Of a stretch of DNA of 64,000 nucleotides, positions 12,722-64,000 are shown piece after piece. The stretch is from Takakia lepidozioides (Eukaryota; Plantae; Bryophyta). Made by a program: the position numbers and the translations under genes. The notes beneath the pieces are model-generated. The model did no database searches and had not been told where the DNA came from. It saw only the letters and a list, made by a program, of their open reading frames with translations. Each line of letters starts with the position of its first letter. Positions within the stretch are counted from its first letter, which is position 1. The stretch spans positions 51,522,001 through 51,586,000 of the forward strand of contig CM060732.1 in assembly GCA_030704615.1 (NCBI GenBank), in the 5' to 3' direction.

Positions 12722-12738
12722 TGGCGACCATACTGGGA
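12722..12738 (+). other. Primer-binding site, tRNA-Arg-like
   Basis: TGGCGACCATACTGGGA 2 nt after the LTR CA; resembles the complement of plant tRNA-Arg 3' ends (tRNA identity inferred). Confidence 0.7.
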
Positions 12739-23250: not shown

Positions 23251-23294
23251 TCCAGATTTCCCGTCCCGAGTGATTCTTTTGATTGCTGGTGGAC

Positions 23295-25030: not shown

Positions 25031-25381
25031 GAGCAACGGAATTGCTGCACATGTCGGCACTCTATCTGACTGAAGGGCATGAGGCGGCGCGGCTGACCGT
25101 TGGTATAATGATGTTTGTTTTTCGGACGGCAGGCGTACCCTGAACGATTCGAATTTCGTAATGACGCAAACTCCACGAGGAGACACTTTCGTCCAACCCT
25201 TTCGAACCCAAGTGGTGCATCACCGCCGTTTCATCTACTTTTGTCGTGTCTCCTCAGTCACCCCTCTCGCGCCCTTTCCATCTGCACTCTTTGCCCCTTT
25301 TCCCTCTCTCTGTTCTTCTTTGCTCGAACCTGAGAGGGGGGGAGTTCGTGCACCAGAAAATTATACTTCGGACGTAGGCCA

Positions 25382-28300
25382 ATGCCGAAGGGGAGGAAGC
25401 AGATGCGTCTACAGGAGGAGATTGCCATCTCCGAGCAGCAGGCCACTCAGGCAACCCAGCCACCAGTGAGAGCTCCATGCGATCGGGCTGCGCGCAGCTG
25501 ATCGAGCACCGAACCCCCCATTTTGCTTCTGTAATTCTTAGACTGAATGCTAGGAGACTTGAATGCAGAACATGTTTGCATGCCTAACAGGAAAGGTGGA
25601 CGTGCTGGAGGGATCGCAGGAATCCGAAGAGCCGCAGGAAGAGTCCGAGGAGCTAGCTGCAGCACGTACACCACCCGATCCCCGAGCGCGGGTATTCCTG
25701 CCGGGCCTAGCCCTGTGCGATTCAAAGACGCGTCTTCGAAGGGCAAGTTCAAAGCCCAGAGATCGACTCGCGTTCTTCGGTCATGGAGAATCGCCAGCAG
25801 GGGTCGGGCCCTTCTCCAGCAAAGTCGAAGAAGAAGCAGCCCGTCCCTCTACTGGCTTCTGAACCGGCTCAGGCCGATTCACCCCCCCCCCAACGCGAAT
25901 GAAGCAGCAGGGTAGAAAAGACAGATTCAATTGCAGCAGACACCTTCACCTGCAAGGATGAGGAAGCAGAAGGCAATCAGGGCGACGGGAACAATCTCCC
26001 GCAAAACCGCTTCCACGAGCTGAAGCTCAGTTCCTGGAGGATTTCCCGCCTGCAGATGTTGGGGCCGACTCTGCTGCAGCGAAGGCAATGGGATCGACCG
26101 TTGATCTCGATTTGGTACCGGAGGAGGGTGCTGCCGCTGAACGTTCGCAGCAGACCTCACCACCGATGAGCAAGCAGGCCCGGAGGAGGCCTCTGCAATG
26201 GCAGAATTGCCCGCAGACAGGCCCCAGAGTGCAGCTCCAGTTGAGGATGCTCCAGCTGCTCAGCCACTACCGGCACCTACAGACATGTCTCCGGAGGATT
26301 TCAAAAGTGCAGCGGATAAAATGTTGGAGGAGACACACAGTAGCATTGGCAGAGTTCTGGGCAGCAGGGTATTCCAGCGGACTCTTCGAATCCCACTCTG
26401 TCGCATGGTCTCCCTTCCCATCGTCAGGCAGGCCCTTCCCGGAGATGTGGATAAGCTCAAGTTCGCATTTCGAGAAGGGTACCGTCTGGGATCGGCAGCG
26501 TTTTACGTTTCCATTGAGAATGAGGACGGCGAAACTCGTGGACCCACTGCCGATGAATTGTCAACGTGGGATACCCACTGGCACACTCGCAACGACGAAT
26601 TCGAGGCGACGCTGAAGGGTGATCCAGACTTCGGCCATATGTCGGGTAAAATGTTCTTTGTGTGGGACGGGAATCACCGACTTCTCGCCTGGTGGGAGTA
26701 CATCAAGCAGAACCATGCCAAGCACATTGGCTGGCATTACATGGTGGAGTGTGTCATCCTCAAGGTGAAGGCGGCAGACTCCTCCCTGCTCAAGAATGCC
26801 ATGGCGGACCTCAACTCGTAAGATACTCATACCCTCCCTAGCACGTTCGAAATGCGGTGCCGCATTTCGGTTTCCATTCTGGTTTGTTTCCGTGCTTCCG
26901 TGTACTGAACTGGAGAGTGTGCCTTGCAGGGTCACTGAGAATGCGTACGTGCATACCCACATGGCACATATGCTGTACAGGGTGAGGAAAACTGGTCTCA
27001 CTGATCCGCAGATGTTTGCGGAAATGCTGGAGCCCGAGCTCATTCAGAAAGCCGTTGCAAAAACAGACCGGACATGGTATCGTCTCACTATGGATGGAAT
27101 GGTGGAGGTGATATACGAAGTAAGTCGTCTCCAATTTCCCTCTGCTCATCCTTCCCCAATTTTCAGTAATGTTTCCACATGAATCGAATGTAACGCTTCT
27201 GCATGTTTTTGTTGGCAGTCAAACATCAAGCTGGATTTGGCCCATGCCAAACGCTTCTTCATGGAAAGTGAGGGGCAGGTCAAAACGTTGCAGTCATTGA
27301 CTGAGCACTTGAAGGAAGCCGGTGTCAAGTCCAGAACCAAATACAAGTCAAAGCTTGTGAAGCTGGTGGCAATTGCAGATCCGGCACTTGGAAAGGACTT
27401 CATCCCCGAGATTGCAAAACACTATTCTCGGGCCATGCAGCCGACCATGCAATTGGAGAAACTGCATCACCTCTCAACGGCATGTGTGGAGGCGAAAGAG
27501 AAGGTGAGGTTTCAATGCACTGAAGTTCCTTCCTAGCAATAGCCACTCTCTTCCAGCTCCTGACATTGGATCGGAAATGGCAGACACGGTGGCTGTCGAT
27601 CTGGAATGCATCCGAGAGCATAAGGACAATGTGGTCTTTTCCACTCGAAGTTTCCGACCCTGCAGTGGATGTGTGGCTCAACCGTATGACTTGGTGGTTC
27701 CAGGTAATTCAAGGTACTTCCCCAGATTTGCTTTTCTGACATGAATTCCCTGAACTGCTACGTGACAATGCATTTGGGAATCGCAGGTAATGTCGAATGC
27801 GAAGGAGCAAGTCGTAATGCACACAAATTCGTTCGGCTTGTACGTCAAATGGGATGGAACACAGACATTGGAAGACTACGTGACACGTTTCAGATGTGCG
27901 TACAAGGACAACCTTTTCGCCAGAGAGCTACAGACAGCAAGAAGAGCGTGGAGTTTACACATCAGGAGGGAGCGGGAAAGCTGCAATGCGAATTGTTTAC
28001 AGGTGAAGCACAGCTGCCCTTGTATGCGAAGCCTGGTTACGAGGTTTGTCTCGGAAATGCGGCACCGCATTCGCATTTTATGTTTTCGGTGGCACTCTGC
28101 CAGTAGGTTGGTCTCAACTTTTGCTCACGCATGCTGACTGCCTTGCAGGTATATGAAATACGTGCTCCTTCAGACAGGGGCCCTGGCTCAAGAGCCCCCG
28201 TTCTTCATGGCTTGGACCGTGGCGGGCCCAAGCTGTGTCTACACACCCGAGATGCAGAAACAATGGCATCCCGCGCATCTCGTTGGATGCCCGTGGTACC

Positions 28301-28695
28301 TGGACATGTCTGGCGGTATTGTTGACGAGTCTGAGAAAGATCTGCACGCCTTGGCAGAAGAGAAGAGAAAGGAAAGATGTGTCCCTGCTGGGCCAAAGTC
28401 GGCAAAGGAATCTGCTGCTCTGGAAGAATCCAGAAAGGCAGCTGAGATGGCACAAAAGACGGTGGATGCAGCTGTGCAGGCCAAACAGAAGGGGTCGAAG
28501 AAGAGGACTCGCCAACAAGGAGCAGCTGTTGTGACACCCGCCAAAACGAAGAAGCAGAAACAGCTGTTCAGGAAGAGGGTGAGGAAGAGGACTCCGATGG
28601 AGACTTTGCAAATTGTAAACAGTGGGCCAATTCCGACAGTTATTCAACACAATGAAACACAATCATACAGAAGTGAGGTACGATGGGTTTATTGA
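25382..28695 (+). CDS. Multi-exon MULE cargo gene encoding a ParB/Srx-like (DGNHR) domain protein with a low-complexity N-terminus and basic C-terminus
   Basis: ORF 26198-26817 contains FVWDGNHRLLAW (DGNHR at 26666-26680); putative GT-AG introns 26818-26929, 27120-27218, ~27504-27556, 27704-27786 and 28044-28148; start codon and middle exons uncertain. Confidence 0.7.
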
Positions 28696-28762
28696 TCGGA
28701 CACGATGTCTCACATTTACCAACTGCAGACAAAACTAAGGCCTTCCTCCTTCTACATGGGCT

Positions 28763-29450
28763 TCACCAAGTCGACGGAACTTCGATTCCCCTTAAAACAA
28801 GCTCATCACTGCTACGGCACCTCGAGGTAAACTGCAATTCGGTCGTTCTGCTGCCCTTGCTGGAGCCGACGACAATGTCATGTCCATCAATGATACCACC
28901 ATCATACATTGACAAGGTCATTGTGGGCCTCATGTGCCCGTGCGATTCGTCTTCGCAACGCAGCCGAATGTCTCCATACACTGGAAGAGCGGAGTGATCT
29001 GCACGTATATAGTTTTCCCCGGTGCCGTCCTCCCTGGTCCACTGGCAGCAGTTCCAGCGCCAAAGCGAGGCCGTGCGTGATCTGTCCGGCATCCCTTTCC
29101 AGCTTGGTATATCGAGGTCAACAATTTTCAGGACCCACGGACCGCATTGACCCTCGCCCTCACCTCGCTCAAAGCGGTAATAGCCCTCCAGATACTCCAT
29201 TGCGCAAAGACTCTTGCTTGATTCCAGCAGCGTCTGTGAAAACAGAGAGCCAGACAATGATGTCTCCTGATTCTGGTTTGAACATAGCATAATCGTGGCC
29301 ATGATAAGGGCAGTCGGCTGGATTTCGGCGGCACGACATCCTTGAAAAAGAGTAGCGGAGTACGCTCAATGACAGCAGCTCCCGGATGGAGGAGGAGGAC
29401 TGGCTGGAAAAAGTTCAAGCTAACGCTGCAATTCCTCACAAACACTCCAG
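28763..29450 (-). CDS. Unknown MULE cargo ORF X1 (frameshifted)
   Basis: DCPYHGHDYAMF...YYRFERG...PWVLKI...RWNCCQWT...YGDIR...ELVLRGIEVP; paralogous to X2. Confidence 0.6.
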
Positions 29451-29692
29451 GGCACATTTAAATTTCCCCCTACAGGATCCTGGACCGATGAAGATTGGCT
29501 GCTGCATGAATGTAGCCGTTTCAGTTTCCTACCCTGCCATGCAAACTATGGGCAGTCACTGCCAGGTGGGCCGATAGCCACTGGACACGACGAAGTCCAT
29601 CCCCTCTTCGATGTAAATGCGGCGCGAATTTCCATCCGGGGGATGGACTTCGTGGCAGATCTCAAACTATAACTTGTTGATGAGAAAGATGT

Positions 29693-30440
29693 ATGGGTTC
29701 ATCCACCGCTGGCGTGATGAACACGTCCACCTCCGTCGGTGGGTACGTGGACCCAGATGCTCCATTATTGGAGGCCGGACTGCTCTTCCGCTTCGCATCA
29801 TTTCCAAAATCTAAGGGCTTCGTAGCTGTCCGCAAGGTCATCGGCATCCAAGTCGTCCTCAGGTCCTCCTTTGCAAGGATGCCGTGCTTCCGGAACCGGG
29901 ACGACTGCCCATTTGGAGGCATCGATTATGCAATGTATTCGGCCACATCGGGAGACATTGTTATCTGGTACACAGATTACAGAAGATACTGGTTCGATTG
30001 TGGAAACATTGGTGGCTTTTGAGTATATCGTAGGCCACTACGCCTTCGAGCGGGGTGACGATCTTGGTCTGAGGAGTCCGTGGCTCCTGCGCATCCTCGA
30101 TTCCGATTTTCCCAGCTACGACGGTCACCCATGCAGAAGAAGGCGCACTGCTATGCTGTTGCGGTGGAACTGCTGCCACTGGACGTGGGTGGACTCCATC
30201 GGAGAGACCTATTCTCCTGAAGGAGTGCGCTCCTCTTCTCCATTGTATGGGGACATTCGCATTGGTGTGGACGACGAAAACGTGAAGATTTCCATATTCG
30301 ATGGTGGTATGATTGAAGGGCAGGACATTGTGGTGAACATCACTAGGGGCGGTACAACGGCTGCAATCGACTTTACATGGAGGAGCCCCATGACTCATGA
30401 GCTAGTTCTGAGAGCAGTCGAAGTCCCATTGACAACGTGA
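29693..30440 (+). CDS. Unknown MULE cargo ORF X2 (frameshifted), head-to-head paralogue of X1
   Basis: DCPFGGIDYAMY...HYAFERG...PWLLRI...RWNCCHWT...YGDIR...ELVLRAVEVP. Confidence 0.6.
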
Positions 30441-30851
30441 CTTGTATTCAGTAGGCACAGGGCTAAGATTTGATGGCACAATCAGCACAGTAGACGTGCT
30501 TCAAATGCAATTCATGTGGATCAATAAAAACCTCATTGTGCCCTCTTTTTATTCTATTCTGTGTCCATCGTTCCCAAAATGCGTCATTGCTCATTTCGTT
30601 TGGGATTGGGAGTGTGGGTGGATTTTGCAAATGGCTGGTAGGCTGAAATGGGCCCCCATTGTACAGAGCAGTACCACCCTACCATTCGCGAAACATTGCC
30701 TTTCAATATATAATTCTAAATAACATTGCCGAACCTCCTTCATCGGGAGGTCCTTCTCCCCCTATGACCGTGGCACCCTAAACCCTATTCCCGCGGACAC
30801 TCATTTCCGGAAAATAGTGCTGCTCATGTTTTTTTCCACACTTACGACTCT

Positions 30852-30902
30852 GCTCATGGCTCATGCCGCCCATGGCTCATGGCTCATGAAATAGCAGCCC
30901 CC
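30852..30902 (-). repeat. Right TIR plus subterminal GCTCATG repeats
   Basis: Inverted match to 8771-8830; followed by the TSD. Confidence 0.85.
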
Positions 30903-45246: not shown

Positions 45247-45257
45247 GTTGCTGGTTT

Positions 45258-46479: not shown

Positions 46480-48444
46480 AGGGCAGCCTTGCGTGTGCAA
46501 ACCTGGGAGCCCTGGAAAAGGAGAAAGAGGTCCATGATGAGATCGTCAGAGCTGGAATTGTAGCAAATGTCATTCTGAACACTGCCCTAGTGGACATGTA
46601 TGCAAAATGTCGGTGCATCTAGTATGCAAAGGGAGTGTTCGACACTATGACTGAACGAGATGTGGTGTCGTGGAGCGATGCTTGCAGGGTATGCACGGCA
46701 GGGACGTGGGATGGAGGCTTTGGAGACCTATGAGCAAATGATGGGGGAAGCACATCATGTTTGTGTGCATTTGCAATGCTTGTGCAAGCCTGGCAGCCCT
46801 GGAGAAGGGCAAAGAGGTGCATGGGGATATCATCAAAGCTGGAATTGTACCAAACGTCATTCTGAACATTGCCCTGGCAGCTCTGGAAAAGGGGAAAGAG
46901 GTCCATGGCGGCATCTTCAGAGCTGGAATGGTACCAAATTTCATTCTGAACAATACCCTGGTAGACATGTTTGCAAAATGTGGGTGCATCTAGGATGCAA
47001 TGGGAGTGTTCAACACTATGGCTGAACAAGATGTGGCGTCGTGCAAGCCTGGCAGCCCTAGAGAAGGGCAAAGAGGTGCATGGGGATATCGTCAAAGCTG
47101 GAATTGTACGAAATGTCATTCTAAACACTGCCTTGGCAGCTCTGGAAAAGGGGAAAGAGGTCCATGGCGACATCTTCAGAGCTGGAATTGTACCAGCTGT
47201 CATTCTGAACAATACCCTGGTGGACATGTTTGCAAAATGTGGGTGCATCTAGGATGCAAAGGGAGTGTTCGACACTATGGTTGAACGAGGTGTGGTGTCG
47301 TGGAGTGCGGTGCTTGCAGGGTATGCACAGCAGGGACGTGGGATGGAGGCTTTGGAGACCTATGAGCAAATGATGTGCGACGGGGTGAATCCCGACCACA
47401 TCACGTTTGTGTGCATTTGCAGTGCGTGTGCAAGCCTGGCAGCCCTGGAAAAGGGCGAAGAGGTGCATGGCGACATCGTCAGAGCTGGAATTGTACCAGA
47501 TGTGATCATGAACTCTACCCTGGTGGACATGTATGCCAAATGTGGGTGCATGGAGGATGCAAAGGGAGTGTTCGACAATATGGCTGAATGAGATGTGGTG
47601 TCGTGGAATGCAATGATCGCAGAATATGCACATTATGGTTGTCATAGGGAGGTCCTACAACTATTTGAAGGAATGCAAAAGAACGGCTTGAAGCAGTATG
47701 TGTTCTCTCTGCATGCAACCACAGTGGCTTTCTGAATGAAGGAAGACGCTACTTCGATTCCCTGATTCAAGATCATGGTGTCACTTCGACAGTATAGCAC
47801 TTTGGCTGCATGGTGGACCTTCTTGGACGTGCGGGACAACTGGATGAGGCAGTGGACCTGATTAATAAAATGCCAATCAATCCAGATGTTGTGGTGTGGA
47901 AGGCCTTGTTCAGTGCCTGCAGAATCCATGACAATGTAAAGATGGCTGAACCTGCCGCAACATCTATCCTCAAGTGGAATGAACAGGATGTCGCGACTTA
48001 TATTGCTATTCAAACATCTATGCTGCTGGCAGGTGGGTTGATACTATAAAGGTGAGAAGAATGATGAAGGTCAGAGGGGTTGAAAAGGAGCCAGGTCGCT
48101 GCTGCATTGAGGTTTGCAACAGGGTGCACACCTTCGTTGTAGATGACAAGTTGCATCCCAGAATTAAGGAAATCCATGCTGAGCTGAGAAGATTGTCTGG
48201 GAAGATGAAGGAGGCGGGGTATGTGCCTGACAGGCGCTTTGTATTGCATGATGCGGGGAGGAGGAAAAGGAATTTTCTCTTTGCCACCACAGTGAGAAGC
48301 TGGCCATTGGTTTTGGGTTGATCAGCATGACCCCTAGGACGCCTCTCCATCTCATCAAGAATCTTCAAGTGTGCGGTGACTGCCACACCTCCACCAAATT
48401 CATCTCAAAGATTGTTGGCCAAGCAATTGTTGTACGGGACGCCC
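46480..48444 (+). pseudogene. PLS-class PPR-E-DYW RNA-editing factor pseudogene, truncated within the DYW domain
   Basis: LVDMYAKCG, DVVSWNAMI, MVDLLGRAG, PG box (KEPGRCCIEV), HSEKLA, CGDCH, ending at IVVRDA; multiple stops, deletions and internal duplications. Confidence 0.92.
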
Positions 48445-48852
48445 ATCCGCCCGCGCTCTGACTTACCTGGCGGATGGAAATTCGGCGCCGGATTTCCATC
48501 CGGCCGCGCTCCGACTTACCTGGCGGATGGAAATTTTGCGCTGGATTTCCATCCGTCCACGCTCCGACTTACCTGCAGGATGGAAATTCGGCGCCGGATT
48601 TCCATCCGACTTACCTGGCGGATGGAAATTTTGCGCTGGATTTCCATCCGTCCGCGCTCCGAATTACCTGCAGGATGGAAATTCGGCACCATATTTCCAT
48701 CCGGCGCCCCTCTGACTTACCTGGTGGATGGAAATTTGGCGCTGGATTTCCATCCGGCCTCTCCTGGATGAGAATTGCTCGGGCGGAGGGAGGGCCTCGT
48801 TGCGTCATACTTCATCCGCTGGATAGAAATTCGGCGCCGATTTTTTCCATCC
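48445..48852. repeat. Second palindrome array GGATGGAAAT-N10-ATTTCCATCC, ~7 units at 53-bp spacing
   Basis: Units at 48472, 48525, 48578, 48620, 48673, 48726 and ~48820. Confidence 0.9.
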
Positions 48853-50155
48853 AGCGGGCGATTGACGAAGTCTCGGGGGGATATTCGGTGGGCACTTGTG
48901 ACCAACCTCCATACATTAATGGCGCAATTGGGCATTAAATGTCCTCCGCCGTTGGTTTTGAACCGGGCTGGCGACACAGGGATTCCGCGGTTGCTTCCCG
49001 GATACACCTTGGAAACTTGATGCTAAACTTGGATGAACTTCTATTCGAGGCATGTACGCACACATTTGGCGAGATCTTTTTTCTTTTGCTGGGACTTATG
49101 CCGCGTGGAGAAGGGCGTGGCTCTCCTGAGAGAGTGTCGCGCGGCTTTTACTCACCCATCCCTTCGCTATCCGAGGCGGAAACTCCAAGATAGAAGAGTT
49201 GGAAATCTCTAAGTACTCAGCCCGCGCAGAACAATCAGTCATGACCTACAGCTAGTGTATCATGGGGGTGTTTCCTATTTGTTTCCTTTTCCGCATTCAT
49301 CTTAGCTACCTTACCATTGATAATTAAGTATCAGTTTGCTTCATCAATTTATCGGTTTCCTTCACTCCTCCATTCAATCCACAGCTTCACTCAGATCTCT
49401 CTACACAGTGTGATTGTATCGTATAAGTATCAGATTATGATTTATCAGGTATCAGGCCGAAGCCATTGTGTCTCTATTCTCCTCTACAATATCCCTACAG
49501 CTTTGCATATAACAAGCATCTACTAATCCTCTTTCCTCCTTCATCGTGCTCACCGACTTCCGCTCCGTCTCACTCCGAAATCCTCCTCCCCGAATCATAA
49601 TCCCTTTTTCATTCCCCGTTTCTCCCTTTATCCTCCTATCCGCGGTTCTAACCGTTTCCCTCTCTAACCGTCGTATGTAAATTAACATGTTCCCTTCACA
49701 GGTGTTGTTCCCCACAGTCGTTCCCTGTCCTACTCTTCGTTCCCTATTATCGTGACAGCTGTGTCAAGCGGTGACTGGCGCTGTGTGGCTGTGACTGTGT
49801 GGCTGTGCCGGGCTGTGACTGGCTGTGTGGGCTGTGTCTGCTGTGACGACTGTGACCCTGTGACGGCTGTGTGGGCTGTGTGGCGGGCTGTGACGACTGT
49901 GACTGTGACCGGGCTGTGAGGCCGCTGTCTGTGACGGGCTGTGTTGGCTGTGTGGGCTGTGACTGCTGTGTCGGCTGTGGGCTATGTAACCCCCCTCTAC
50001 AGTGCGCTGGTCACCCCTAAGGTTCCTGTTTGTCTCAGTCTGTGCAAAAATTAAGGGTACCCTACAGATCCCGTATAAGTGTCTAAGTCCCCTACAGTCC
50101 TCTAACATTTACCCCTTCCTCCCTCAAAAAGCCGTGTCCTCACGGTTTACTGTTT

Positions 50156-53100
50156 CTAAGTAGCAACCCTTTGTGAGTGAGCACCTTGTTGACGTTGAGA
50201 GTTTCGTGGCGGGCTGTGTGTACGAGCCCAAGGTCTGTCTCTGGTTGACGGAGATGGTTGATCATTACCTGGATAAGTGAGGCCTTTTGGAGGCTGATAT
50301 CGAGGTAATCTTTCCGGCATAGGAGATCCCCTTTGTTTCTTCTCTTCCATCTGAATTGCATAGTCTTCTCCCATGTCAAAAGAATTCTGTGAAGAAACAG
50401 TTGTATCAGAATCCTCATCGCCTCTCAGGTGTTTTAATTTTCGAACTTTTTGTGGAATCATCTGGGGCATACAATGCTGTCCTACCATGTCTGGAAGTTT
50501 GCATTTTACAACCTGGTGTAACCGTTGAACAGCAAAATTGGTGTAGACACTGAGCTCCTTCTGTCCAGATGAGTGGGGTACCAATTACTGGTGCAGCGTG
50601 CAAGTATTTCCATGCGATATGTCCCTTATAGAAAATGTCATCAAGTCCGAATTTCTGTGTTGACAAATTGTTGCAGGCCGCTTGAAACCATGAACGAATT
50701 TGAGAATCCTTCTGTATCATAACTTTTGGGTCATATAGGTACATATGAGGTGGCACCGAAGGTAATACCAATGATCTCCACTGGAGTAACTTTGAAAGCG
50801 TGCTTGCATCTTTTGTTGCTCAATGTGGTAACGTATCAGAAAACAAGCAGCGTAGTATAGCCCGCACCCCATGACAATACTTGCTATCTCCTTGGTCTTG
50901 GTATAAATGAGTCCATGTACAACCTGGAAAGCAACCAATTCCCTCAACATGGTACCTGCCTCGTGCCAGTATTGTGCAAAGTGATGATCTTCAATATGTC
51001 GATTGTTTGGAAGAACTTTAGTCCTGGTTGCCACTGGCAGCCAAATACGCATGATTTGGTAGTAATGTGCGAATGACTGCGGAGGACTAAATTCTTTCCA
51101 AGCCAAATCCAACATGATGGGAATTTGGTTGAAGGGCATAATCATAGCCCTACTGTACTCCCTGGCAGCTGGAGTTTTAGGTGGGTTAAAAGCTGCATTG
51201 CCCCATACCTCCGGCTGTGGTGGCTGTGGTGTGGTGGTTGTAGTAACCACAGGTTCAGCTACTGGTACACTGCTGTTGTGGTGGTGGTGGTACTGGTTCC
51301 TGTACCATTGGCATCTCCTGCACCTCCTGTGAAGACTGAAAAGCCAGAGTTCTGGCTTGCAAATAAGAAGCCATTAGCTGTTCCTGAGGGATATAGACTC
51401 TTTGGTCGATGTTTGAAGTGAGGTCTTCCACTTGAGTCTGGAGTCCGTCTACATCCTCTTGTAACTCTGCTATCCTACTATAGACATTGTCTATAGTAGT
51501 TGTGGCAATGTTCTGCACCTGCAGTCTGAGCTCATTCATCTCGCTTTGGGTGAGCTTCCGTGGGCTTTTGCCCTCTACTGGCCCTTGTGCTAACCAGACC
51601 TGCATAAGGCTTATCCACCAAGCTGCTTGTGGTTCCCCTGAGAGTTTGCTCCTCTCTTAGCTTGTACAATTCCAAACTGCTGTTGTAAAGCCTCCATGCG
51701 CTTCGCCTGTGGCTCAACCAATTGCGCATAGGCAGCAAGTAGATTATTGGCTTCCTTCGAAGCCTTGTTACTGACCGCGATTTCATTTCTATTGGCCACG
51801 ATGGTTTGTTGCAACTCCACGATGTATTTCTCTTGCTCAGCTTCCATCTGCCTGTATTGCTTGAAAGTATCTTCATTGCGACAGATTGTATTCTTCATAT
51901 CGACAATGAGCTTCATGTGCTCCACATTCTCTTCTTCTGCCTTCGTACATTTTTCCGCTTGACTGTTTATTTCTTTTGTTGATTGGTCAAGCATAGTTGT
52001 AAATGTAGCGCATTGTATCGCCATCCTGTTATGCACTGTCTGCAACTCCGTATGTAGTGCATTCAGTTCTTGCAACTTGCTTTCATGCTGCACCTGCATT
52101 TGGTAGCTGTTGCTTATGTGCTTCGTGCAACTGGTCTTGCGCGAGGCCCTGCCTCAATCAATTGTTGCTTGGCCAATTGCAAAGCCATTTCTGTATTGGC
52201 CAAGTCCTGCTTCATCTTGAGAGTGACCTCTTCATCGACCTTGTTTGCACTCAGTGGCAAGTCGAGCCTCAAACTCCTTCCTGAGTTCTTCTTTCAAGGC
52301 TGTCAATTGGGTAATTGGAACATGGGTTTTGACATAAGTCCCCAACAAATTAAGTGTCCTGCCTATGGAACTCATCAGCATTGCCTGTTGAGGGTCATCA
52401 TGGTGAGGTTGCTGCTGTTCCTCCTGATCTTCAACAGTATGATGTCTCACTAACCATTCAGACCATTGTCCCACCGGATTTTCTTCCTGAACTACTTCAT
52501 TTATGACCGGTGCTACAGTGTCATGGCCTTCCGCCTGTGGTACCTCCGACACAGGTGTGTGCATTATATGTACCTCAGGATTTCTCTTGGGCAACTGTTG
52601 CACCTCTGGGATTTCTGTCTGCTTGACCAGACCAGAATATTCATAGAGAAGGTCCCCTTTCTCTATTTCTGCCACTATCTGTTCTGTAGTTGGAATATCT
52701 ATCCCTTCACTTTCCAAATCAATTATTTCGGGTTGAGCTGCATGGATAACTTGTGACCTTGTGACAAGTCGTTCAAGTGGCTGTGTTGGTTGTGATGCAG
52801 AAGTAACTTCTTCCTCCCTCTCTGAAGGTCCCTGCTTCCAGTAATAACATTCTTTTGTGCTGCTGTGCCCCTTCCTGGTCATGAGCTTGGGAAACATTAT
52901 CATGCGGAATCCGTGAAGCCAGTGGATCTGCCACTACAGTCTTTCCCCTTCTCTGCCTCTTAGTCTCGGGTTGTGCTGCTAGTCCACCCTCACTGTGTGA
53001 AGAGCCTTGCTCTTCCATTGCAGTTGTTTCTGGCTCAAAACACTCCCATTTCCTTCCTTTCTTGTGCATTAAGTATGCCAGAATTAAGGATTATTTGAGC

Positions 53101-54460
53101 AATGATTGGGCCAGACACTATGATAGGAGATTTTGCGGTAGTACCTTGTAATTTTCATCTCCTCTACCAGTGCGTTGTACATTATGTCCGCCCATTGTAC
53201 CTCTTGTCCCTTCAAGCCTTTGAGGATTTCCTCGTGAAGGATCTGCTCAAATATTGTTGGTTCTGTTTCAGGGCAATCAGAACGTTCAATACTTGGCCTA
53301 TGTCTTTTAACCCTGGGTACACAGCTTTGGTACAAGCATAACCCTGAGTTTTAAAGAAACTCCCTTCTTGGAATAAATCCCCTATTTGCAGTCTTTCCCT
53401 GTGTTCCTCCACATACACATGACCTGCTGGCAATCGAAACAATTGCTGGAGGTATAGGGGAGTAATCATTAATTCAACTCCCTTCACCGTTGTTGTTCCT
53501 GTCTTTGGCTCAAAGTTCTGCAAAAATTGTAACATGTACTGTCTATGGTGTAGTGTCCAATCCATGCTTTGCAATCCTTCCAATCTCAGCTCCTTCAGTA
53601 TCTTTATCGCCTGTGGGGTAGCCATCGTTTGTTTCTGCAGAATTGTGGTGCTCTTCACCCTGATTTCCTCCATTCCTCTCACTCTCTTCATCTTAGACTC
53701 ACAGAACTGCTTTGGCTGTAACAACTGCAGGAATGCCTGTAGTGCACAAAGCAAAAACGTATGGTTGCCGCAGAAAGCTATGGGTAATCTCTTGTAAGCC
53801 TGCGGGGCTTGCAAGCATTGTTCAAGAGAAAAGCTCTGCTCTTCGTTTCGTGTCTCTGCCATTGCGTAAGTAATATTGCGAGCGTATAGTCTGTTAGTTC
53901 CTCCATAGTTTCCAAGTTATAGCATTTATGGCCTGTCCTGTCGAGACGCCCGTTACTCAGAACGACGCCGCCTCTTGCGCTCAATTTCCCTCCATTTTCT
54001 TGATCATTTCTCTGGTTTTCTATTGGCTGTATCCGCTGTGACTGGATTTTAACTTTTATCTTCTTTAGTGGACTTTCCCTGTTGGATAGTCCACTAGGAT
54101 CACACATGCGACATGAATTCAGTTTTTCTGTACTTGCCGTTCGTTCTGTTTCCCTTTTTCCGTATTCATTAATGGGCCCGCCTTTCATCCCTTTTGACGG
54201 CCGTTCTTGTCCTCTTTCTTTTTGACACCTGTCCTTGCACTTCATTCTGCTGTGTGTCGCACCCTGACCTCCACGTGTCTATTTTTAAAGTAATTTCCGT
54301 TTCCTCTTCCGTCATCCATTTTCCTGAAGTTATTATGTGTCCACTTGTCACTGATTCTATGGATCGTGTAACTTTAGTAGGCTGTGTTGAGCTGTGACAG
54401 GCTGTGTCATACTGTGTTACGCTGTGATAGGCTGTGTTGCACTGTGGTAAGCGCTGTGAC
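50156..54460 (-). pseudogene. 3' extra coding region of copy C (~1400 codons, frameshifted)
   Basis: Consecutive ORF pieces co-linear with copies B and D; central coiled coil. Confidence 0.8.
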
Positions 54461-54589
54461 ACGCTGTGATAGGTGTGTTAGTTGGCTGTGTCACGTCGTG
54501 ACGGGCTGTGGTAGGCTGTGTCACGTCGTGATGGGCTGTGATAGGCTGTGTTGTGGGCCTGTGTCACGTTTGTTTTGCCCACCCCGGTC

Positions 54590-57500
54590 ATATATACTGG
54601 GGCCTAGCGACAAGTGTTCCATACTCCGTTCGTAACACTGGTGCAGCCCGTGACTGCTCTTGCGGTTCAACATGCAAATCATGCTGCAGGGGTTTGTCAT
54701 GGATACCACTGTACCCCTTCAACTTATTTGCATTGACTCTTCCCAGCATTTCTTTGTTAATGGTTTGTAACATGGCTGTGTTGTTATCATACATCTTTTG
54801 TATGACATAAGGTCCTTTCCATGGTGATTTAAGCTTAGAAGCTTGAATCTTTCCTTTCTTCTGCAACCATAGAACCAAATCCCCCGTCTTAAAAGTCTTT
54901 AATTTGCCTTCATCAAACTGTTCCTTTCGCTTCATCTGAATTCTGGTCATATTATCAGCTGCATCAGCACGTACTTCTTCCACATGGTATAATTCATGTT
55001 TCCTGACCTTGATGGAGTCTTGCAATTCCATTCTTTTTCCCCACTCCGTTCTCATGGTAGGTAACAGAATTCCACTGGAAGTAAGGCTTCCATACCATAA
55101 ACTAATTGGAATGGTGTATACTTAGTGGTGACTTTATATGAAGTCCTGTATGACACAAAAGCTGTCAGCAGCTTTGTATCCCAATCCGTTCTGTTTGCAT
55201 TGACTATCTTAGCCAAGATAGTACATAGTATTTTGTTGGTAGCCTCTGCCTGCCATTACCCTGTGGGTAATATGTTGTACTCTTTCTATGCACAATCATA
55301 AACTCTTTAGTCAATAACTCAATGGTCTCATTCATGAAGTGACTTCCTTGATCACTGATAAATTCTAAGGGACATCCAAATCGTGTAAGTATGTTCTCGT
55401 ACAGGAACCTTGCTGTGGACTTGGCTGTGTTGTCCCTCAAAGCTTTAGCTTCCACCCACTTTGTAGTATAATCAGTGGCTGTAATTATGTACCTGTTTCG
55501 TGTATTCTTGGATGGTGGATTAATTGGTCCAACAAAGTCTAGTCCCCATTCTGAAATGGTTCCGTAGGCATTGTAGGATGCAAGGCCATTCTTCCAGATC
55601 TCTGCAAGGTCCTAGCCTCTGACATTCATCACACTTCTGACAATACTCATGTACATCTTTGAACAAAGTAGGCCACCAGTATCCTGCGAAGTAGTATCTT
55701 TCTACTGGTAGTCTCTTCTCCAAAATGACCTCCAGCCACTCCTTTATGAACTTCCTCCAAGACTTTATTTACTTCATGGTGGTACAAGCATCGTTTTAGT
55801 ACTCCATCAGGTCCTAACTTATACATTCTGCTTCCTACCATAGTATAAGGTAAAGCTTGATAGCAATTCTCTTCCTCTGCTCCTTACCATAACTAGGTGG
55901 GCACTGACCATGAGCAAGGTAGTATCTGATTGGCCACTGCCAATCTAACCATTCATCTGCACTTCCTTGCACCTCCATTACAAATAAACTCGCATCAGGT
56001 AACTGATCGTCCACTCCTGTGGCGGCCTCTCCTGTTGTTAGTCGTGACAAATGATCTGCCACAAGATGCAAACGGCCAGGCTTGTAAATAACCTCGAACT
56101 CAAACTCATGCAAGATTATTAACCACCTCGCTATCCTTCCACTTATCAAAGGTTTGTTCACAGATATATCAGAGCCTGGTGATCCACATAAAACATAAAC
56201 TTTCTTCCCAATAGGTAATGCCTGAATTTCTTCACTGCATAGATCATTGCCAATGCTTCTCTTTCCGTTGTGCTATAGTTCCTCTCAGCACTGTTCATCA
56301 ACCGGCTAGCATAGTACACAGGTGAATCTATATTCCCTGTAACATTCTGGGCTAACACCGCTCCCAACGCTTCTCCTGATGCATGCATCGTGAACATGAA
56401 ATACTACATGCCAGTGAGGGTTAATCAGCACAGTTGTTTACTGACAGTGTAAGTTCCTCAAACGCCTGTTGACATTCAGCTGTCCATGCAAACACTGCAT
56501 CTTTCTTCAGAAGCTTGCTCAATGGTGCTGCTATTTGTGCATACCTTTTGACAAATCTTCTGTAATAACTGGTTTGCCCAAGGAATCTCCTTAAACTCTT
56601 AACATTCACTGGTGGTGGAGAGACTTTAATGGACTCTGTCTTCCTGGGATCCACAAGGAGTCCCTTCTTACACACAATGTGTCCCAGAAGCACCCCTGAG
56701 TTCACACAGAAAGTACACTTCTCTGGATTCAAGCCCAGACCTCTCATCCTGCATCTGGCCAGGCATAACTCCAATTTATGCAAGTGCTCATTCTTAGAGC
56801 TGTACACACTGAAATCATCCAAAACACCTGCATGAAATCATCCAGATACTCATGAAAAGATTCACTTATCACTCTCTGAAAGGTCGCTGGTGCATTACAA
56901 AGTCCAAAGGGCATGACTTTGTATGCATAAGCCCCCCAGTCTGTGATGAAAGCTGTTTTTCCCTTGGTCTTCTTCTGCCACTTGCACTTGATTATAACCA
57001 CTGAAGCCATCCATGAATGAGTACATCTCATGGCCTGCCACAGTGTCTAATACTGCTTCTGTGAATGGCAAAGGGAAAGGATCTTTCTTCGTACAAGCAT
57101 TCAGCTTTCTTATAGTTCACACATACTCTTAGTTTGCCATTCTTCTTGGGAACTATAACAATGGGTGACAACCAAGTTGTATACTCTATTGGGTATATAA
57201 ACTTAGCCTCAGCCAACTTCTTTATTCTCTCTCCAACCTTCTGTGCGTAGTTGGGATTCATTCTATACCTCTCGCCTGCTTGATTGGTACTGACCCTGGT
57301 TCCAGTTCAATTTTATGCTGACAGACTTCAGGTGGTATCCTTTTAGATCCTCATAGCTCCAAGCAAATACATCTCTGTATTTGATGAACAAGCTTTTTTG
57401 CTTCTTCGAAGATTCCGGCTCCAAATCAGCTCCTACTTTCACCATTCCTCGGTTCCTCCTGAGTTCCCACATTTACTTCTCTCACCTGCTCATCAGCTGT

Positions 57501-60500
57501 GATTGTCCAACCGGTCACCACTTCATCCTGTAAGCTCACAGTGGCTGGTTCTTCTAGGATTTCTATTTCTCCTTCTCTTTCTTCATAGAAATGTGATGGG
57601 GCTGGTTCCTCTTCAGTTGGTGTTGCTGTCACTACACCACAGCAGATACCTCTCAAACAACTTAGGCTTTCCAGCCGCATCTCTGCAACCTGCTCCCATT
57701 CTGGGTGTGCAGCAAATAGGGTAGCTTCCTGCTCCTCATCCAGTCCTCCCCTCCAGTCATACTCTCTGACTCCTCGAGGTCTTCTTGTAGCAGGTAATCT
57801 ACTAGATTTCTTTGTGGTAATTTGTATCTCGTGCATCCCATTATGCACAGTTAGTAACTGAGAATTCCAGTCATGGAATACCCTGGCCTGTTTCAGCCAC
57901 GGACGTCCCAATAATAAGGAGTAAGCCTCCATGACTTCATCCATTTTTAATACAGTTACTGTGATCATAAAGATCATTTTCTGTATCTGTATCTTAACTC
58001 CTCTTATTAATCCCAATGGCTGTACACTTCTTTGATCTGCCATTGTTACTGTAAATGGGGCTGGTTTCATGTTACTTAGACCAAGCTTCTTCCTTAATTG
58101 GTCTGTCATGATATTTACTCCAGAACCACCATCTATCAGTACATCAGTTAGTTCTGTGCTTCCAATTCTCAATTGGATTACTGGCATAGAATCATCAAAG
58201 TCCATGACTGGTTCTCGCCCTTCCGGCTTCACATTATAACTGGTCACCTTGCTGTTCAGGTCTGTGTTTCCTGTCTCTTGGGCAATTCGATTGATTGCTG
58301 ATACAGCCTGTGCCTACAATAAGGTGCCACAGCTAATAGCTGTCCAATGGTAATTTCTGCTTTGGTCTGACATATTACTTCAGCCAAAGTCTCTTCATTA
58401 CTTTGCATGTCTGCATCTTCTTTTTTCCTTTCTTCCTCACTCCCCTCTTTTTCTCCATCCGAATCAGAGGAATCTGCCACAGGAATATCAGTACTCTTTT
58501 GCATTTCCCTTATAGTATCTGCCACTTCCTTGTGCAGTTCCTTCTCATCTTTCAAGTCTCTTCATCTTCAGGCATATCATTGCCACTTCCAGTCTCATCT
58601 TCTTCCTCTTCTACTGGAGGTATTAGTTTGGCTTTACTTCTTGTTACTATCATTGTACTTACTTCTGGTACAACACATGGCCTAACCAGTGAGCTGCCAC
58701 CACTGGGCCCTCATTCACAGGAGCTCTCATCTCATTCTGGTGTCTTATCCAGAATGAACAGGCTGCCTTGCGATGTCCTGGCTGATTACAATAGTAACAT
58801 AGCTCTTCACCATTGGGTCCTCGCCCTGGTCTGTTCTTGGATTATTTCTATAATCCTGATTCCCGGGCTGGTAATTCCCCTTGGATTACCCTGATAGTTG
58901 CCTCTGGAATTTCCTTGGTAATTCCCTCTTGAATTACCTCTTCCATGCCATTGTTATAACCACCAGACCTACCATAGTGGTCCTGATCATTGCTTCTTCT
59001 TGGCTGGGGCTGCACCTGATGCACCCTCACTTGCCTAGGTCTCTTGCAGCTGTCCTTCTGTTGTAGTAACAATTCTCAGTAGAATGGTTATCCATTTTAC
59101 AGATAGTACAGTGTTTCTCCTTCATGTGGCATTCTGTGGTATGGCCTTCATTCTGGCACTTTGCACACCATACACCCTTCCTCCAATGTGTTGCAGCCTC
59201 TGTGGCATACTTCTTCAAGATTTCTTCCAATCTTTCTCATAGTTATCCCTCTTCAACTTTTCTTTCTCTCTTACTCTTTTTAGTTCTTGCTCTTTCTCTT
59301 CATTTCTGATCATCTTTCAGAGTCCTCATCTTCCTTTTTCTCTCTTCTGAGCATTCCCAATTGCTCAATTCTGTTTGGCAGTTTTCAAATGCCTCCTCCA
59401 CTGTATTATGGGGTAACATATCCACTTTCTTTTGCAACTCTGGTCTTAGTCCACTCACAAACCAAGTCTTCTGTAAACCGGGCTGGTACTGCAGCCAGCT
59501 TTTTCATCATCAATTCCATCTTCTCCATATACTCTTCAACAGTTTCATGCTTCTTCTGCTTCAGCTGTTGTAAACTTCCATACACTTCATCCTCAGTTTT
59601 ACTTGTCCTGAACCTATTTCGAAATGCTGTATTCAAGCCATTCCAGGTTAGGAAATGATTATCAGGGAATCTTGCACCATTCACTTGCTTTCTTGATAAG
59701 TGAACAAGGAAACAGTCTCATCTTGGCATCATCGCCATTCTCATTGTTCACTATACACATGTGCTCAAATTGGCTAATGTGTACATCGGGATCCCCTTTT
59801 CCTGAATATATTGGAAAGGGTGGTTTTGCCCGTGTTGGTTGTAACGCCATCTGTGGCCCTACCTTCTGCCCACTGACAGGTGCTGGCACCCTTGCTGGTG
59901 CTGGTCCTTCTGGACCTGTTGTTTTTGTGGTGGATCTTCCACCAAGTGGTGGCCCTTGAGCACTCCCTGCTTCTGGCCCCACGATATTCACAGTATTCCC
60001 AGCTTCAGTTGCACTACTTCCCACACTCCCTGTCCCCCCCCCAGAGCCAGATCCAGGCAGCCCGCCTGATCCCCCTGAGCCGACACCTTCGTTGGCCTGT
60101 GATCCAAGTGCTCCACTTGATCCAGGTCCAACGGGTTGGGATGTCCTGGTTGTAGTCTCAACCTCAGCTGTTGGGTCTACTTCTTCATATTCTTCCTCTT
60201 CCAATTTCTTCTCTCTGTTTCAAAGTTCTGCCCTTGGGTTCTTCACTCATGTAACTCAACTGTAATGGTGTTGGAGAGTCTGAACTCTCCGTTGGCTCTG
60301 CCATCCTCATCTCCTTCTTCATCTTCTGCTTCAGAAACTGGAGTTCCTGCTTTTGGTGTTCCATGCCAACTCTTATCAAAGATTTCTGTCAAGTCTTTTA
60401 TCCAAGGATGTACCTCAGATCTTTCACCTCGTGATTGATCTTCTTCCTGTACCAATTCCCTTAATCTTTCTTGCAAAGAAACAGAAGGAGTGGCATCCAA

Positions 60501-60670
60501 CTCTAGTTCTTCCGGTATAGGTGATGCACTTTTGATCTTGATGGTGTGAGAGGTCCAGATGATTCCCCTATGTCTATTCCTCTCTCCCAAAGATATGGAT
60601 AATTAGCTTTCAGATAGCTTTCTCTTTTTGATGAATATCTTTGTCGTCTAGCTTCTCTTTCATCACTCAT
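54590..60670 (-). pseudogene. gag-pol: gag-pol of copy C (gag, protease, RT, RNase H, integrase with GPY motif)
   Basis: All domains in Gypsy order; no chromodomain and no additional RNase H seen. Confidence 0.92.
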
Positions 60671-62469
60671 GTCCCATGTCTTTCATTTCTTTTAATGTGG
60701 CAATAACCAAAACTCTCTTCTGTAATATCTCTCGTATATGCCTGGATTTCTTTCAAGCTTCAATGCACCCTTGGCTATACTTGAAGTCTCCGTTACCATA
60801 TAACCATATGGCAAACAAGTCTGAAAAGCTGTTCTTGGTGTGAGTTTGATCCACAAAATATCCTTTGGAATCCAATTCTTTACCAGTACAAGCTCTTCAT
60901 GCATATGAGTATAAACATTCACCTTTCTTTCTTCCCAGCCTTCAAACTCTACTCGTTTAATGGATAGCAACGCTATCACATAAACTAATGTTGGTAACCA
61001 ACGTGCTCTTCCTCTACAGGCTACCTGATAAATCTTTATCACTCCTTTTCTCCAGACCCCATTCTGGATCAGCATCATGCACTCGTTTAAGAATATTTTC
61101 TTTACATCCGTCTGGCAATTCCAAGAACCTTTGAAAGAATTGTTTGGACAATCCTTCTTCGTTCCACAGGGAATTTGATTCACTTCAAATTCTTTAATGG
61201 TCCAACCACCATGATCCCACCAGATGCCTGTCACATCTGGTTGTTCATGTCCCAGGTCCCCAGTATGGTCCAAATGTCGCGCGGCTTTTACTCACCCATC
61301 CCTTCGCTATCCGAGGCGGAAACTCCAAGATAGAAGAGTTGGAAATCTCTAAGTACTCAGCCCGCGCAGAACAATCAGTCATGACCTACAGCTAGTGTAT
61401 CATGGGGGTGTTTCCTATTTGTTTCCTTTTCCGCATTCATCTTAGCTACCTTACCATTGATAATTAAGTATCAGTTTGCTTCATCAATTTATCGGTTTCC
61501 TTCACTCCTCCATTCAATCCACAGCTTCACTCAGATCTCTCTACACAGTGTGATTGTATCGTATAAGTATCAGATTATGATTTATCAGGTATCAGGCCGA
61601 AGCCATTGTGTCTCTATTCTCCTCTACAATATCCCTACAGCTTTGCATATAACAAGCATCTACTAATCCTCTTTCTCCTTCATCGTGCTCTTCCGCTCCC
61701 TACTCCGATCCTCCTCGAATAATCCCTTCTTCATTCCCCTTTCTCCCTTTATCCTCCTATCCGCGGTTCTAACCGTTTCCCTCTCTAACCGTCGTATGTG
61801 AACTAACATGTTCCCTTCACAGGTGTTGTTCCCCACAGTCGTTCCCTGTCCTACTCTTCGTTCCCTATTATCGTGACAGCTGTGTCAAGCGGTGACGGGC
61901 TGTGTCGGCTGTGTCGGCTGTGACGACTATGACGGGCTGTGTGGGCTGTGACGGCTGTGTGGGCTGTGTGGGCTGTGACGACTGTGACGGGCTGTGTGGG
62001 CTGTGTGGGCTGTGACGACTGTGACAGGCTGTGTTGGCTGTGTGGGCTGTGACTGCTGTGTCGGCTGTGTGAGCTATGTAACCCCCCTCTACAGTGCGCT
62101 GCTGTCACCCCTAAGGTTCCTGTTTGTCTCAGTCTGTGCAAAAATTAAGGGTACCCTACAGATCCCGTATAAGTGTCTAAGTCCCCTACAGTCCTCTAAC
62201 AGAGAGACCCCACATCCAGACCGCGGCGGAAGCTGAAGGCTTTGTACTACGGGCGACATCCAACCTCTCGCATGGGCCAAACTTAAGCTCCAGCAGGAGA
62301 TTCCATTGTCTTGCTCACAACCCGCGCCAACTGAAGCCGAGCACTCTTAGGCAAACCACTTCCTCTTTCGCTTTGTGTAACACGTGCGGTTTTCTTCGTT
62401 TTTTGGTTTGTTTTCGCATCTTCAGCCTGGCAGCCCTGGAAGCGCATGGTTGCGTCGCAAAAGCAGGAG

Positions 62470-62725
62470 TTGTTGAGAAGAATGATCAAGGTCAGAGTGG
62501 TTAGAAATGAGCCAGGTCGTTGCTGCATTCAGATTTGCAACAGGGTGCACACCTCGCTGTAGATAACAGGTTGCATCTCGGAATTAAGGAAATCCATGCT
62601 AAGCTGAGAAGATGGTCTGAGCAGATGAAGTGCCTTCAAAAACATTTCACCCTGTTTTCCGTCTTATGGAATTCGTGTTCATTTGTTCATCGTGTTTCAT
62701 GTTACTGGTTGAGTGAACCTTAGAT
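62470..62725 (+). pseudogene. Duplicated fragments of the PPR locus
   Basis: 62470-62630 matches 48052-48210 (PG-box region); 62630-62725 matches ~45985-46090. Confidence 0.75.
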
Positions 62726-62989
62726 AGTTTGCAATGCGATGGTGGTTTTCATTGCGATGTTGGTTCTCACGATTTTTGGGGATGACAGAGTGACGACGAG
62801 CCCGACACGCTAGTGGTATCATCGACAGCTCCAACTGCTCGAGTAGTCACTCCAAAAGCCGCTACTCATCGCATGTTTGGATCGCCCAACTTGGGGCGGG
62901 AGGGCAAACTAAAACCTTTTGTTGGTGGACGGGAGGACCTGCAGTGAGAGTACGACAGAATAGGCATTGGGGAGGTTGGTGCAGGCGGC

Positions 62990-64000
62990 ATGGCAGGTGA
63001 AGGGCATTGGATGAGGACAGCAGATCCGGCAATGGAGGATGTTGATGCACATGCAGTAGGGCCCGCCCTCGCAAAGAAGAAGAAGAAAGCCAAGCACATG
63101 CAATCCCCAGCGAGAGAGCCGTCACGGGCTGTGGAGGGGGGAGTGAGCAGGGCGCGCGAGGGTGTCAGTTCGCCTCAATCAAAAGTGGTCATCCTGGAGG
63201 GCTCCCCTGCTGTTACCCCTAGTAAGAAACAGAAAGCCCGTGAGAGGGCAAAAGAGAGGGCAAAAGAACAGGCGAGACAGAAGGCTAGCCAGGAGGAAAG
63301 AGAAAAGGCCACTAAAGAGGCTAGGGGTGTCGAAATGACATATGCCCATGTAAGCGAGGGACGCACAGAGACGGTGGATCCCTCCAAGACACCACAAAGA
63401 GGCAGTAACACACCGGTTACACCATTGCGGGCAGGAGCAGCCCCCACAATTACCCATACGGTGGAGACTGGAGGAGGGGAAAGAACACCACAAAGAGCAC
63501 GGATTGTGCAAGTTCGAGGTGAAGCCGGGGAGAGGGCAGTAGAGAGGGGGAGAGTGCTCGAGGTGGTTCCGGTGGTGGTTGACCATGTTGAGGACGACGA
63601 GAGGGAGCTTTCAGACCAGGATGACATCCTTCCGGACATCCCTAGGCCCCAAACCCGGAGCATACATGCTGGATTTGGCGGTCCGGGTGGGCTGCCGGAG
63701 AACCCCCCTGCAACAGACGTCATGTCAGAGGCGGATATGAAGTTGGCTGCTGCCAAGATGTTGGAGGCAACCCACAGCAACATTGGCAGGGTCCTAGGGG
63801 GCATGGTGTACCCGGCCAAGCTTCGGATTCCCCTTTGCCGCTTGGTTTCATTGCAGGTGGTCACACCTGCCCTCCCAGGCGATATCGACAAGTTGAAATT
63901 CTCTTTCCGGGAGGGATATCGAATGGGGTCTGCCGCGTTTTATGTTTCCATGGAGAACGACCACGGAGCTTCTCGTGCCCACACTTCCGATGAGGTGGAC
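62990..64000 (+). CDS. Second ParB/Srx-like gene (diverged paralogue), runs off the window end
   Basis: Frame open 62948-64000 (absent from the ORF track because it has no stop); KKKKKAK NLS-like run; KMLEATHSNIGRVLG...LRIPLCRLVSL...ALPGDIDKLKFSFREGYRMGSAAFYVS aligns with 26285-26560. Confidence 0.8.
   Translation, partial: MAGEGHWMRTADPAMEDVDAHAVGPALAKKKKKAKHMQSPAREPSRAVEGGVSRAREGVSSPQSKVVILEGSPAVTPSKKQKARERAKERAKEQARQKASQEEREKATKEARGVEMTYAHVSEGRTETVDPSKTPQRGSNTPVTPLRAGAAPTITHTVETGGGERTPQRARIVQVRGEAGERAVERGRVLEVVPVVVDHVEDDERELSDQDDILPDIPRPQTRSIHAGFGGPGGLPENPPATDVMSEADMKLAAAKMLEATHSNIGRVLGGMVYPAKLRIPLCRLVSLQVVTPALPGDIDKLKFSFREGYRMGSAAFYVSMENDHGASRAHTSDEVD

Follow-up and report, generated by a model that had tools for sequence, protein, structure and literature searches.

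ParB-like accessory genes of DNA transposons have been described from algal genomes. PAG3 of Plavaka (EnSpm) elements in the red alga Bostrychia moritziana has a ParB-like N-terminal domain and adjacent tandem inverted-repeat arrays, and the accessible text of the preprint proposes that it binds its own element (bioRxiv 10.1101/2025.02.11.637652). In Ectocarpus, Sola1-1_Ec32 carries a ParB–methyltransferase accessory gene on the strand opposite the transposase, which the accessible part of the report proposes to bind and modify its own element (PMC12477816). In Arabidopsis, VANC proteins and the tandem target motifs of VANDAL elements co-evolve, as stated in the available portion of PMC5735166. 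Both ParB-like transposon genes with inverted-repeat arrays (in red algae) and protein–target co-evolution (VANDAL/VANC) are already known. Here we analyse a stretch of 64,000 nucleotides from Takakia lepidozioides (Bryophyta; GCA_030704615.1, contig CM060732.1, 51,522,001 to 51,586,000, forward strand), referred to as the window. It holds a palindrome array (array 2) beside an open reading frame (ORF2) for a ParB-like protein and, elsewhere, a Mutator-like element (element 1) with its own array (array 1) and ParB-like gene (gene 1). We read array 2 and ORF2, with a probability of roughly 0.6, as the decayed remnant of a second subfamily of a likely Mutator-type transposon, whose accessory protein, of predicted ParB fold, likely binds as a dimer to phased palindromes near its own gene.

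Compared by description, the family resembles PAG3 as a DNA-transposon accessory gene with a ParB-like domain and inverted-repeat arrays, but it occurs in land plants, is Mutator-like, shows no 2-oxoglutarate oxygenase and has clade-specific sites with measured phasing. As in Sola1-1_Ec32, the ParB-like gene lies opposite the transposase and some homologues, here from Riccia, carry a methyltransferase-like domain (below the curated cut-off); however, the superfamily is another, no methyltransferase was detected in the window copy or in 80 metagenome loci, and the accessible text describes no array for Sola1-1_Ec32. VANDAL elements are likewise Mutator-like, with an accessory protein and repeated intronic or upstream motifs that diverge together between families. 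In the text available, VANC is a DUF1985/DUF287 protein with short non-palindromic motifs, whereas here a predicted ParB fold accompanies 22–26-bp palindromes and the anti-silencing role is putative. Pfam found neither DUF1985 nor DUF287 in ORF2, in the exons of gene 1 or in the 59 homologues that were aligned.

With bacterial ParB/parS, Noc/NBS and KorB, the family shares the predicted ParB-NTPase fold, the GxxR motif and repeated palindromes near the gene (PMC12704722, accessible text). It differs from ParB/parS in that the gene is eukaryotic and intron-containing, with no ParA among the reading frames scanned and no recognisable helix-turn-helix (HTH). The same survey of the ParB fold gives Srx as the main eukaryotic member, and its main text, as far as available, contains neither 'transpos' nor 'plant'; ParB is also absent from the main text, as available, of a Marchantia N4-methylcytosine preprint. 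No land-plant report pairing a ParB-like gene with a palindrome array was found in the literature outside subscription papers and bioRxiv supplements.

Array 2 lies upstream of ORF2

Array 2 (48444..48759; strands are given here only where one was assigned) consists of six 26-bp imperfect palindromes with a 53-bp period, the period also reported by Tandem Repeats Finder. Full sites start at 48474, 48527, 48580, 48622, 48675 and 48728, and a degenerate seventh site occupies 48823..48850, giving spacings of 53, 53, 42, 53, 53 and 95 bp. The window contains 17 copies of the motif GGAAAT-N10-ATTTCC, where 100 shuffles predict 0.00: six lie in array 2, ten in array 1 and one at 9348. An earlier, sequence-only reading of this DNA had stated that both arrays keep this motif at a period of about 53 bp, and they do.

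ORF2 (62948..64000, plus strand) stays open for 351 codons and runs off the window. Its first ATG is at 62990, its N-terminus is of low complexity, and its ParB-fold domain starts at 63722, so that only the first ~93 residues of the domain fall inside the window; its counterpart of the gene 1 motif DGNHR and the part that would determine specificity lie past 64000. Array and frame are separated by retroelement C (49135..62201), an insertion with long terminal repeats (LTRs) that lies outside the palindrome system and was assigned to the minus strand by eye from sequence resembling a polypurine tract and a primer-binding site. Its LTRs (49135-50107 and 61275-62201) are 98.5% identical (901/915 aligned), the target-site duplications (TSDs) read GAGAG (left 49130..49134, right 62202..62206), and the element is, to judge from its sequence, a recent LTR insertion. 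With retroelement C excised, the last strict array-2 site lies 383 + 741 bp, about 1.1 kb, from the open frame at 62948, as had been proposed. In contigs of four public runs (X1, X2, X3 and X6; at most two samples), those whose loose end at 62201 matches the sequence flanking retroelement C on the left number nine in X1, 18 in X3 and three in X6, while X2 gave no such empty-site contig among the matches listed. The uninterrupted join of the two linker halves exists in nature.

The linker itself is disturbed. Two captured copies of nearby host sequence, one from the E+ region of a pentatricopeptide repeat (PPR) gene and one from 45996-46091, occupy 62474..62731 (plus strand): 62474-62630 resembles 48053-48210 (89%), and 62642-62731 resembles 45996-46091 (76%). 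A contig joint from 62351 to 62777, found in one contig each of X1 and X3, bypasses these pieces, and depth dips there. In X1, linker depth over 48720-49079 is ~1-25 thousand, far under that of array 2 or ORF2, and no contig of the public runs spans from the array to ORF2. The array-2 unit has high contig depth in all four runs, and extra units lie further upstream in other copies of the array. Thousands of contigs cover each of ORF2 and the array-2 unit (a depth that is not a copy number), so both are multi-copy.

On its left side, array 2 begins exactly where the DYW domain of a decayed host PPR-E+-DYW gene breaks off at 48443 (approximate start 46400, plus strand; Pfam PPR, E and E+ motifs). 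Other PPR copies run on normally past this point in 60 contigs of X1. No terminal inverted repeat (TIR) motif of the element 1 type was found near the 48443 junction, and the corresponding side of element 1, with its transposase arm and TIR, has no counterpart in copy 2, whose right end falls outside the window. In the window, ORF2 also has a threonine in place of an arginine that is invariant in alignment A2, while nearly all contigs carry the arginine codon (63864). Because of the DYW break, the missing TIR at the junction, the host pieces in the linker and the arginine-to-threonine change, copy 2 is a truncated, decayed family member, to which an assembly error may contribute. The proposal that array 2 and ORF2 mirror array 1 and gene 1 is borne out for the upstream placement of the array; it does not extend to the host fragments in the linker, the PPR-DYW abutment or the missing arm and TIR.

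The accessory protein has a predicted ParB/Srx fold

The ParB-fold (DGNHR) exon of gene 1 (26285-26818) encodes 178 residues and has 502 relatives at E <= 0.001 (50%-identity representatives). Named homologues come from Selaginella, Riccia and Adiantum; in one homologue search, all 47 matches were Riccia proteins. The exon is followed by an intron whose position is the same in 55 of the 56 scorable loci. The AlphaFold model of the exon has a pLDDT of 91.8. In the VIA structure search its top eight matches were all of ParB/Srx fold (Z 5.6-8.1), the best rows being KorB (Z 8.1, root-mean-square deviation 2.5, 90 aligned), PadC (Z 7.8) and Srx (Z 7.1). Foldseek placed PadC and Noc on top (E 0.011-0.02), and the ESM Atlas likewise gave ParB/Srx clusters. 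The gene 1 domain is therefore predicted to have the ParB/Srx (ParB-NTPase) fold, and a ParB-type fold of ORF2 would follow from its 67% identity to gene 1, over the first 92 domain residues only. The G-N-H-R of the gene 1 DGNHR motif fits the GxxR P motif of the ParB fold (PMC12704722, accessible text) and is at least 90% conserved in alignment A2. At the sequence level, the best hint came from the DGQHR domain TIGR03187, which matches 4/59 aligned homologues (best E 0.001); searching PDB sequences with alignment A1 turned up a single weak match, a ribosomal one.

Beyond the ParB domain, 347 residues of the Riccia homologue P0084 form an all-helical model. In some homologues from Riccia the C-terminus is formed by an N6_N4_Mtase-like domain (PF01555, E 5e-5, a score below the curated cut-off). 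Methyltransferase-fused members in Riccia sorocarpa are P0183, P0181 and P0227; the first two are labelled 'Trimethylguanosine synthase' in UniRef, probably a mislabel.

The viral contigs searched held neither an array-2 site nor a relative. A bacterial origin was considered for locus L081 (1-4178), a contig filed under a cyanobacterial metagenome-assembled genome and the one hit among eight candidates from prokaryotic genomes. It was rejected, since L081 is 98% identical to metagenome locus L036 with the same intron position and is likely plant contamination. This locus, added after the main analysis, is intron-bearing and has four family palindromes 106-109 bp apart.

The two window arrays differ slightly

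Array 1 (23293..24860) comprises at least 23 sites with a 52-53-bp period and mixed spacers. The reference 26-mers of the two arrays differ at five positions, with an overall range of 3-6/26; two array-1 sites are just three changes from the array-2 site, and 20 sites around gene 1 lie within 5/22 mismatches of an array-2 seed. Half-sites of the two arrays are distinguished by two positions. At the first, array 1 has C in 31 and T in eight of 46 half-sites, and array 2 has T in 13/14; this C/T difference could be CpG decay. At the second, G is found in 42/46 array-1 half-sites and in 0/14 of array 2. Because T is common in the family at this position, array 1 probably has the derived state. 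The G is present in all three isolated sites of element 1 (9346, 26846 and 28051), the last two of which lie singly within predicted introns of gene 1. The difference between the arrays is real and element-wide, but small.

The sequence-only reading had inner and outer site bases differing between the arrays and spacers that looked unrelated. The first holds at the two diagnostic half-site positions, although the sites as a whole are close. The second does not hold, as the spacers retain faint homology (flank z = 4.4 against shuffles; mean -4.3 vs -6.4 +/- 0.5). The proteins are clearly diverged, as claimed: 67% identity over 92 residues, with nonsynonymous divergence (dN) of 0.22 and a proportion of synonymous differences (pS) of 0.74, at which synonymous sites are saturated. 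These values indicate a long divergence under purifying selection, and ORF2 is the sister of gene 1 (SH-aLRT 99, in a quick tree without bootstrap). With synonymous sites saturated yet the palindromes so close, the window pair would illustrate conservation more than divergence, and the proteins of the two subfamilies likely cross-recognise both sites.

Protein and site diverge together across the family

A metagenome scan yielded 278 relatives, the best 80 of which were used as loci. One site rule was applied to 82 contexts, these 80 loci and the two window copies: a seed with at least 8/11 symmetric pairs and at least three copies within five mismatches. De novo palindrome families, with sites of ~22 bp, were called in 26/82 contexts (24/80 metagenome loci and both window copies) and in none of the controls, which comprised 82 shuffles, 28 far flanks (134 kb) and six window control chunks. 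Longer contexts were called more often, from 0/15 under 1.5 kb to 12/21 over 5 kb. Every one of the 24 called loci has sites upstream, at a distance of 0.3-2 kb to the matched exon; downstream sites are present as well in 14. Non-palindromic or AT-rich satellites (L059/L060/L079, L067/L070/L071, L075 and L042) were not counted as sites, and asymmetric arrays (e.g. L019, L029, L030, L053 and L055) fail the symmetry rule and were excluded from the Mantel test. Transposase of the element 1 type lies upstream and divergent in 3/80 loci (L040, L042 and L072), most loci being too short to show it.

Half-site types differ by clade. ACCCTCTCGG and AAGGTCTCGG occur in one clade, other clades have GAGGCCTCGG, GCTGTCTCGG, GAGCATTCGG, CCATATG, GTTTGGGTCG, CAACTTTCG or GTACTTT, and the window pair has GGAAAT. 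The inner T-C-G-G positions are common to 13-15 of 18 loci, while the outer arms vary. For the 18 independent loci left after collapsing near-identical proteins, sites are the more distant the more distant the proteins are (Mantel rho 0.44, p 0.0036). Mean site distance rises from 0.20 to 0.64 over rising protein-distance bins, and the nearest neighbour by protein is also the nearest by site in 12/18. The protein trees were quick trees without bootstrap. The congruence of protein clade and array type that had been anticipated is thus present at family level, and co-divergence of protein and site is supported there by these comparisons. The further claim of a matched protein–site pair for each subfamily is partly supported in that general form; for arrays 1 and 2 the comparison does not show a strictly matched, mutually exclusive pair.

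Congruence alone proves little, because kin share linked DNA inherited in cis. Flanks, however, resemble shuffles in 17/21 close pairs (z > 3 in only 4/21), with sites alike in many of them. In L016/L004/L050 site distance is 0.10-0.13 at a flank z of no more than 0.6, and in L068/L052 it is 0.17 at a protein distance of 0.81. Modal periods are 32, 51, 52-53, 64, 74 and 127 bp, about 3, 5, 5, 6, 7 and 12 helical turns. Phasing on modal periods, which 10/18 loci have, gives p 5e-5, or 3.5e-4 on eight distinct values. Since sites outlast their flanks, isolated sites carry the clade motif and periods fall near whole turns, these data point to selection on the sites.

As a separate observation, arrays occur on both sides of the ParB exon in L005 (1790-2706), L029, L016 and L061 (12482-12788), some of them as asymmetric half-palindromes with 74- or 85-bp periods.

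Element 1 as the comparison copy

Elements of the Mutator/MULE family have 9-11-bp TSDs and TIRs. Element 1 (8771..30901) has both, with an exact 10-bp TSD (8761-8770 and 30902-30911) and imperfect TIRs. The TIRs (8771-8830 and 30842-30901) consist of repeats of the heptamer CATGAGC, which differs from the palindrome motif and is a candidate binding motif of the transposase. A transposase-like gene on the minus strand (9730..22313, in the parts 9730-11772 and 21432-22313) is split by an LTR element and was located by tblastn with homologues P0232-P0251. Among these, full-length P0236 has a SWIM finger (E 6.8e-5), and in a transposase homologue we read by eye what we take to be the D...D...CxFH layout; the homologues gave no PF10551 match and no PDB sequence match. 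Element 1 is likely Mutator-like on these sequence features, with the MULE Pfam family unmatched.

Array 1 lies between this minus-strand gene and the divergently oriented gene 1 (26141..28692, plus strand), which contains introns. No ParA-like Pfam match was found among the element-1 frames scanned, a subset in which genes are broken. Near the right end, two diverged paralogous ORFs stand back to back (28770-29364, minus; 29854-30433, plus; 63% nucleotide identity). Neither has a Pfam match or a homologue in the 80 loci, and ORF 29826-30437 (plus) gave no usable ESM Atlas match. Site 29611, between the two, is a hybrid of the array-1 and array-2 types.

A putative self-recognition system

In the mechanism we favour, the predicted ParB-fold protein would load as a dimer on sites arrayed along one face of the helix and so mark the element as self. 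By analogy with VANC in VANDAL, this marking would most likely let the divergent promoters of the transposase and accessory genes stay active in the face of silencing by the host. Selection would keep the site constant inside a lineage; between lineages, protein and site would drift jointly, altering the outer arms and mostly retaining the central TCGG-NN-CCGA core, while tandem amplification could rapidly spread a new site variant. The two window subfamilies may represent an early stage of such drift, probably still cross-reacting. Binding, dimerisation and the anti-silencing role are what we infer from this pattern.

Several findings weigh against this reading. On the protein side, the fold scores are moderate, with no Foldseek match at E <= 0.001, and neither gene 1 nor ORF2 has a Pfam match. 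The 347-residue region of P0084 shows no HTH or known DNA-binding fold (best Z 6.4, generic helices), and seven homologue C-termini gave no tblastn match for a methyltransferase domain in the window or the 80 loci (distant queries, short exons). Copy 2 has no transposase arm, so that it is assigned to Mutator through gene 1. On the site side, 56/80 loci, many of them short, and 9/21 contexts over 5 kb gave no call. Congruence falls to rho 0.19 for distant pairs. Sites were chosen by core similarity, so contrasts of core and flank within a locus are partly built in. The modal-period test was picked post hoc with the data already seen, and over all distinct spacings phasing is weaker (p 0.023; p 0.14 with 12 loci).

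The arrays could instead be binding sites of the element's transposase, through its zinc-binding N-terminus, with the ParB-fold gene merely adjacent. We consider this unlikely. It would suit the place of array 1 between the transposase gene and gene 1, the lack of a DNA-binding domain in the helical region of P0084, and AtMu1, in which the Mutator transposase suffices to bind its own copies and to activate them (bioRxiv 10.64898/2026.08.24.746577, accessible text). According to the same text, however, AtMu1 binds TIRs, whereas the palindromes here cluster around and inside the ParB-fold gene and the TIRs hold another motif. ParB-like genes also occur with other transposases in the accessible reports, beside inverted-repeat arrays in Plavaka and in Sola.

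The sites might also have no protein reader at all, being tandem repeats homogenised by unequal exchange, made symmetric by hairpin-templated repair and tracking the tree through cis inheritance. Linked DNA always tracks the gene tree, the C-to-T change in both arms, one of the two diagnostic differences, is the expected product of methyl-CpG decay, and some Sphagnum-type loci have CpG-decayed sites. This account is nevertheless improbable, given that sites persist as flanks randomise, that the clade motif is also present at isolated sites outside the tandem arrays, that periods come close to whole helical turns and that control DNA has no such arrays. Least credible is that array 2 comes from another element, a non-autonomous one for instance, and was brought beside ORF2 by a rearrangement in this copy: the broken linker, its low depth and the missing array-to-ORF contig would fit, but the linker halves are joined in empty-site contigs, a contig joint bypasses the host fragments, gene 1, the protein nearest to ORF2, carries the site type nearest to array 2, and site and conserved motif lie similarly far apart (1.5 vs 2.0 kb).

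For ParB-like accessory genes of eukaryotic transposons, binding to the own element has so far only been proposed, from algal genomes, and the present family offers a direct test. Cross-binding experiments are well defined, because about ten site types are paired with protein clades and have a shared core, variable arms and phased spacing. Should binding be borne out, land plants would have a second VANC-like system for self-recognition, independent of the first and based on a bacterial NTPase fold; the family might then also become a new source of proteins that bind long DNA sites. A bolder and doubtful extension is a nucleotide-gated ParB clamp on parS-like arrays in Mutator-like elements of non-seed plants, with orthogonal subfamily pairs set by a DNA-reading domain of undescribed fold. 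The family would then amount to a naturally occurring collection of programmable readers of ~22-bp sites, some of them joined to amino-methyltransferases, each protecting only its own element, and arrays 1 and 2 would be a specificity switch in progress.

Surroundings of the elements

The window is repeat-rich, with the PPR-E+-DYW pseudogene, a CDC20 exon and several LTR retroelements. Left of array 2, 44870-48443 holds the CDC20 exon and, after it, segments with internal duplications and pieces of PPR sequence; the region may be cargo that was captured or the ruins of a cluster of host genes. Before it, at 40234-44870, lies an LTR retroelement with a chromodomain (RVT_1, rve and Chromo), of a different family from retroelement C.

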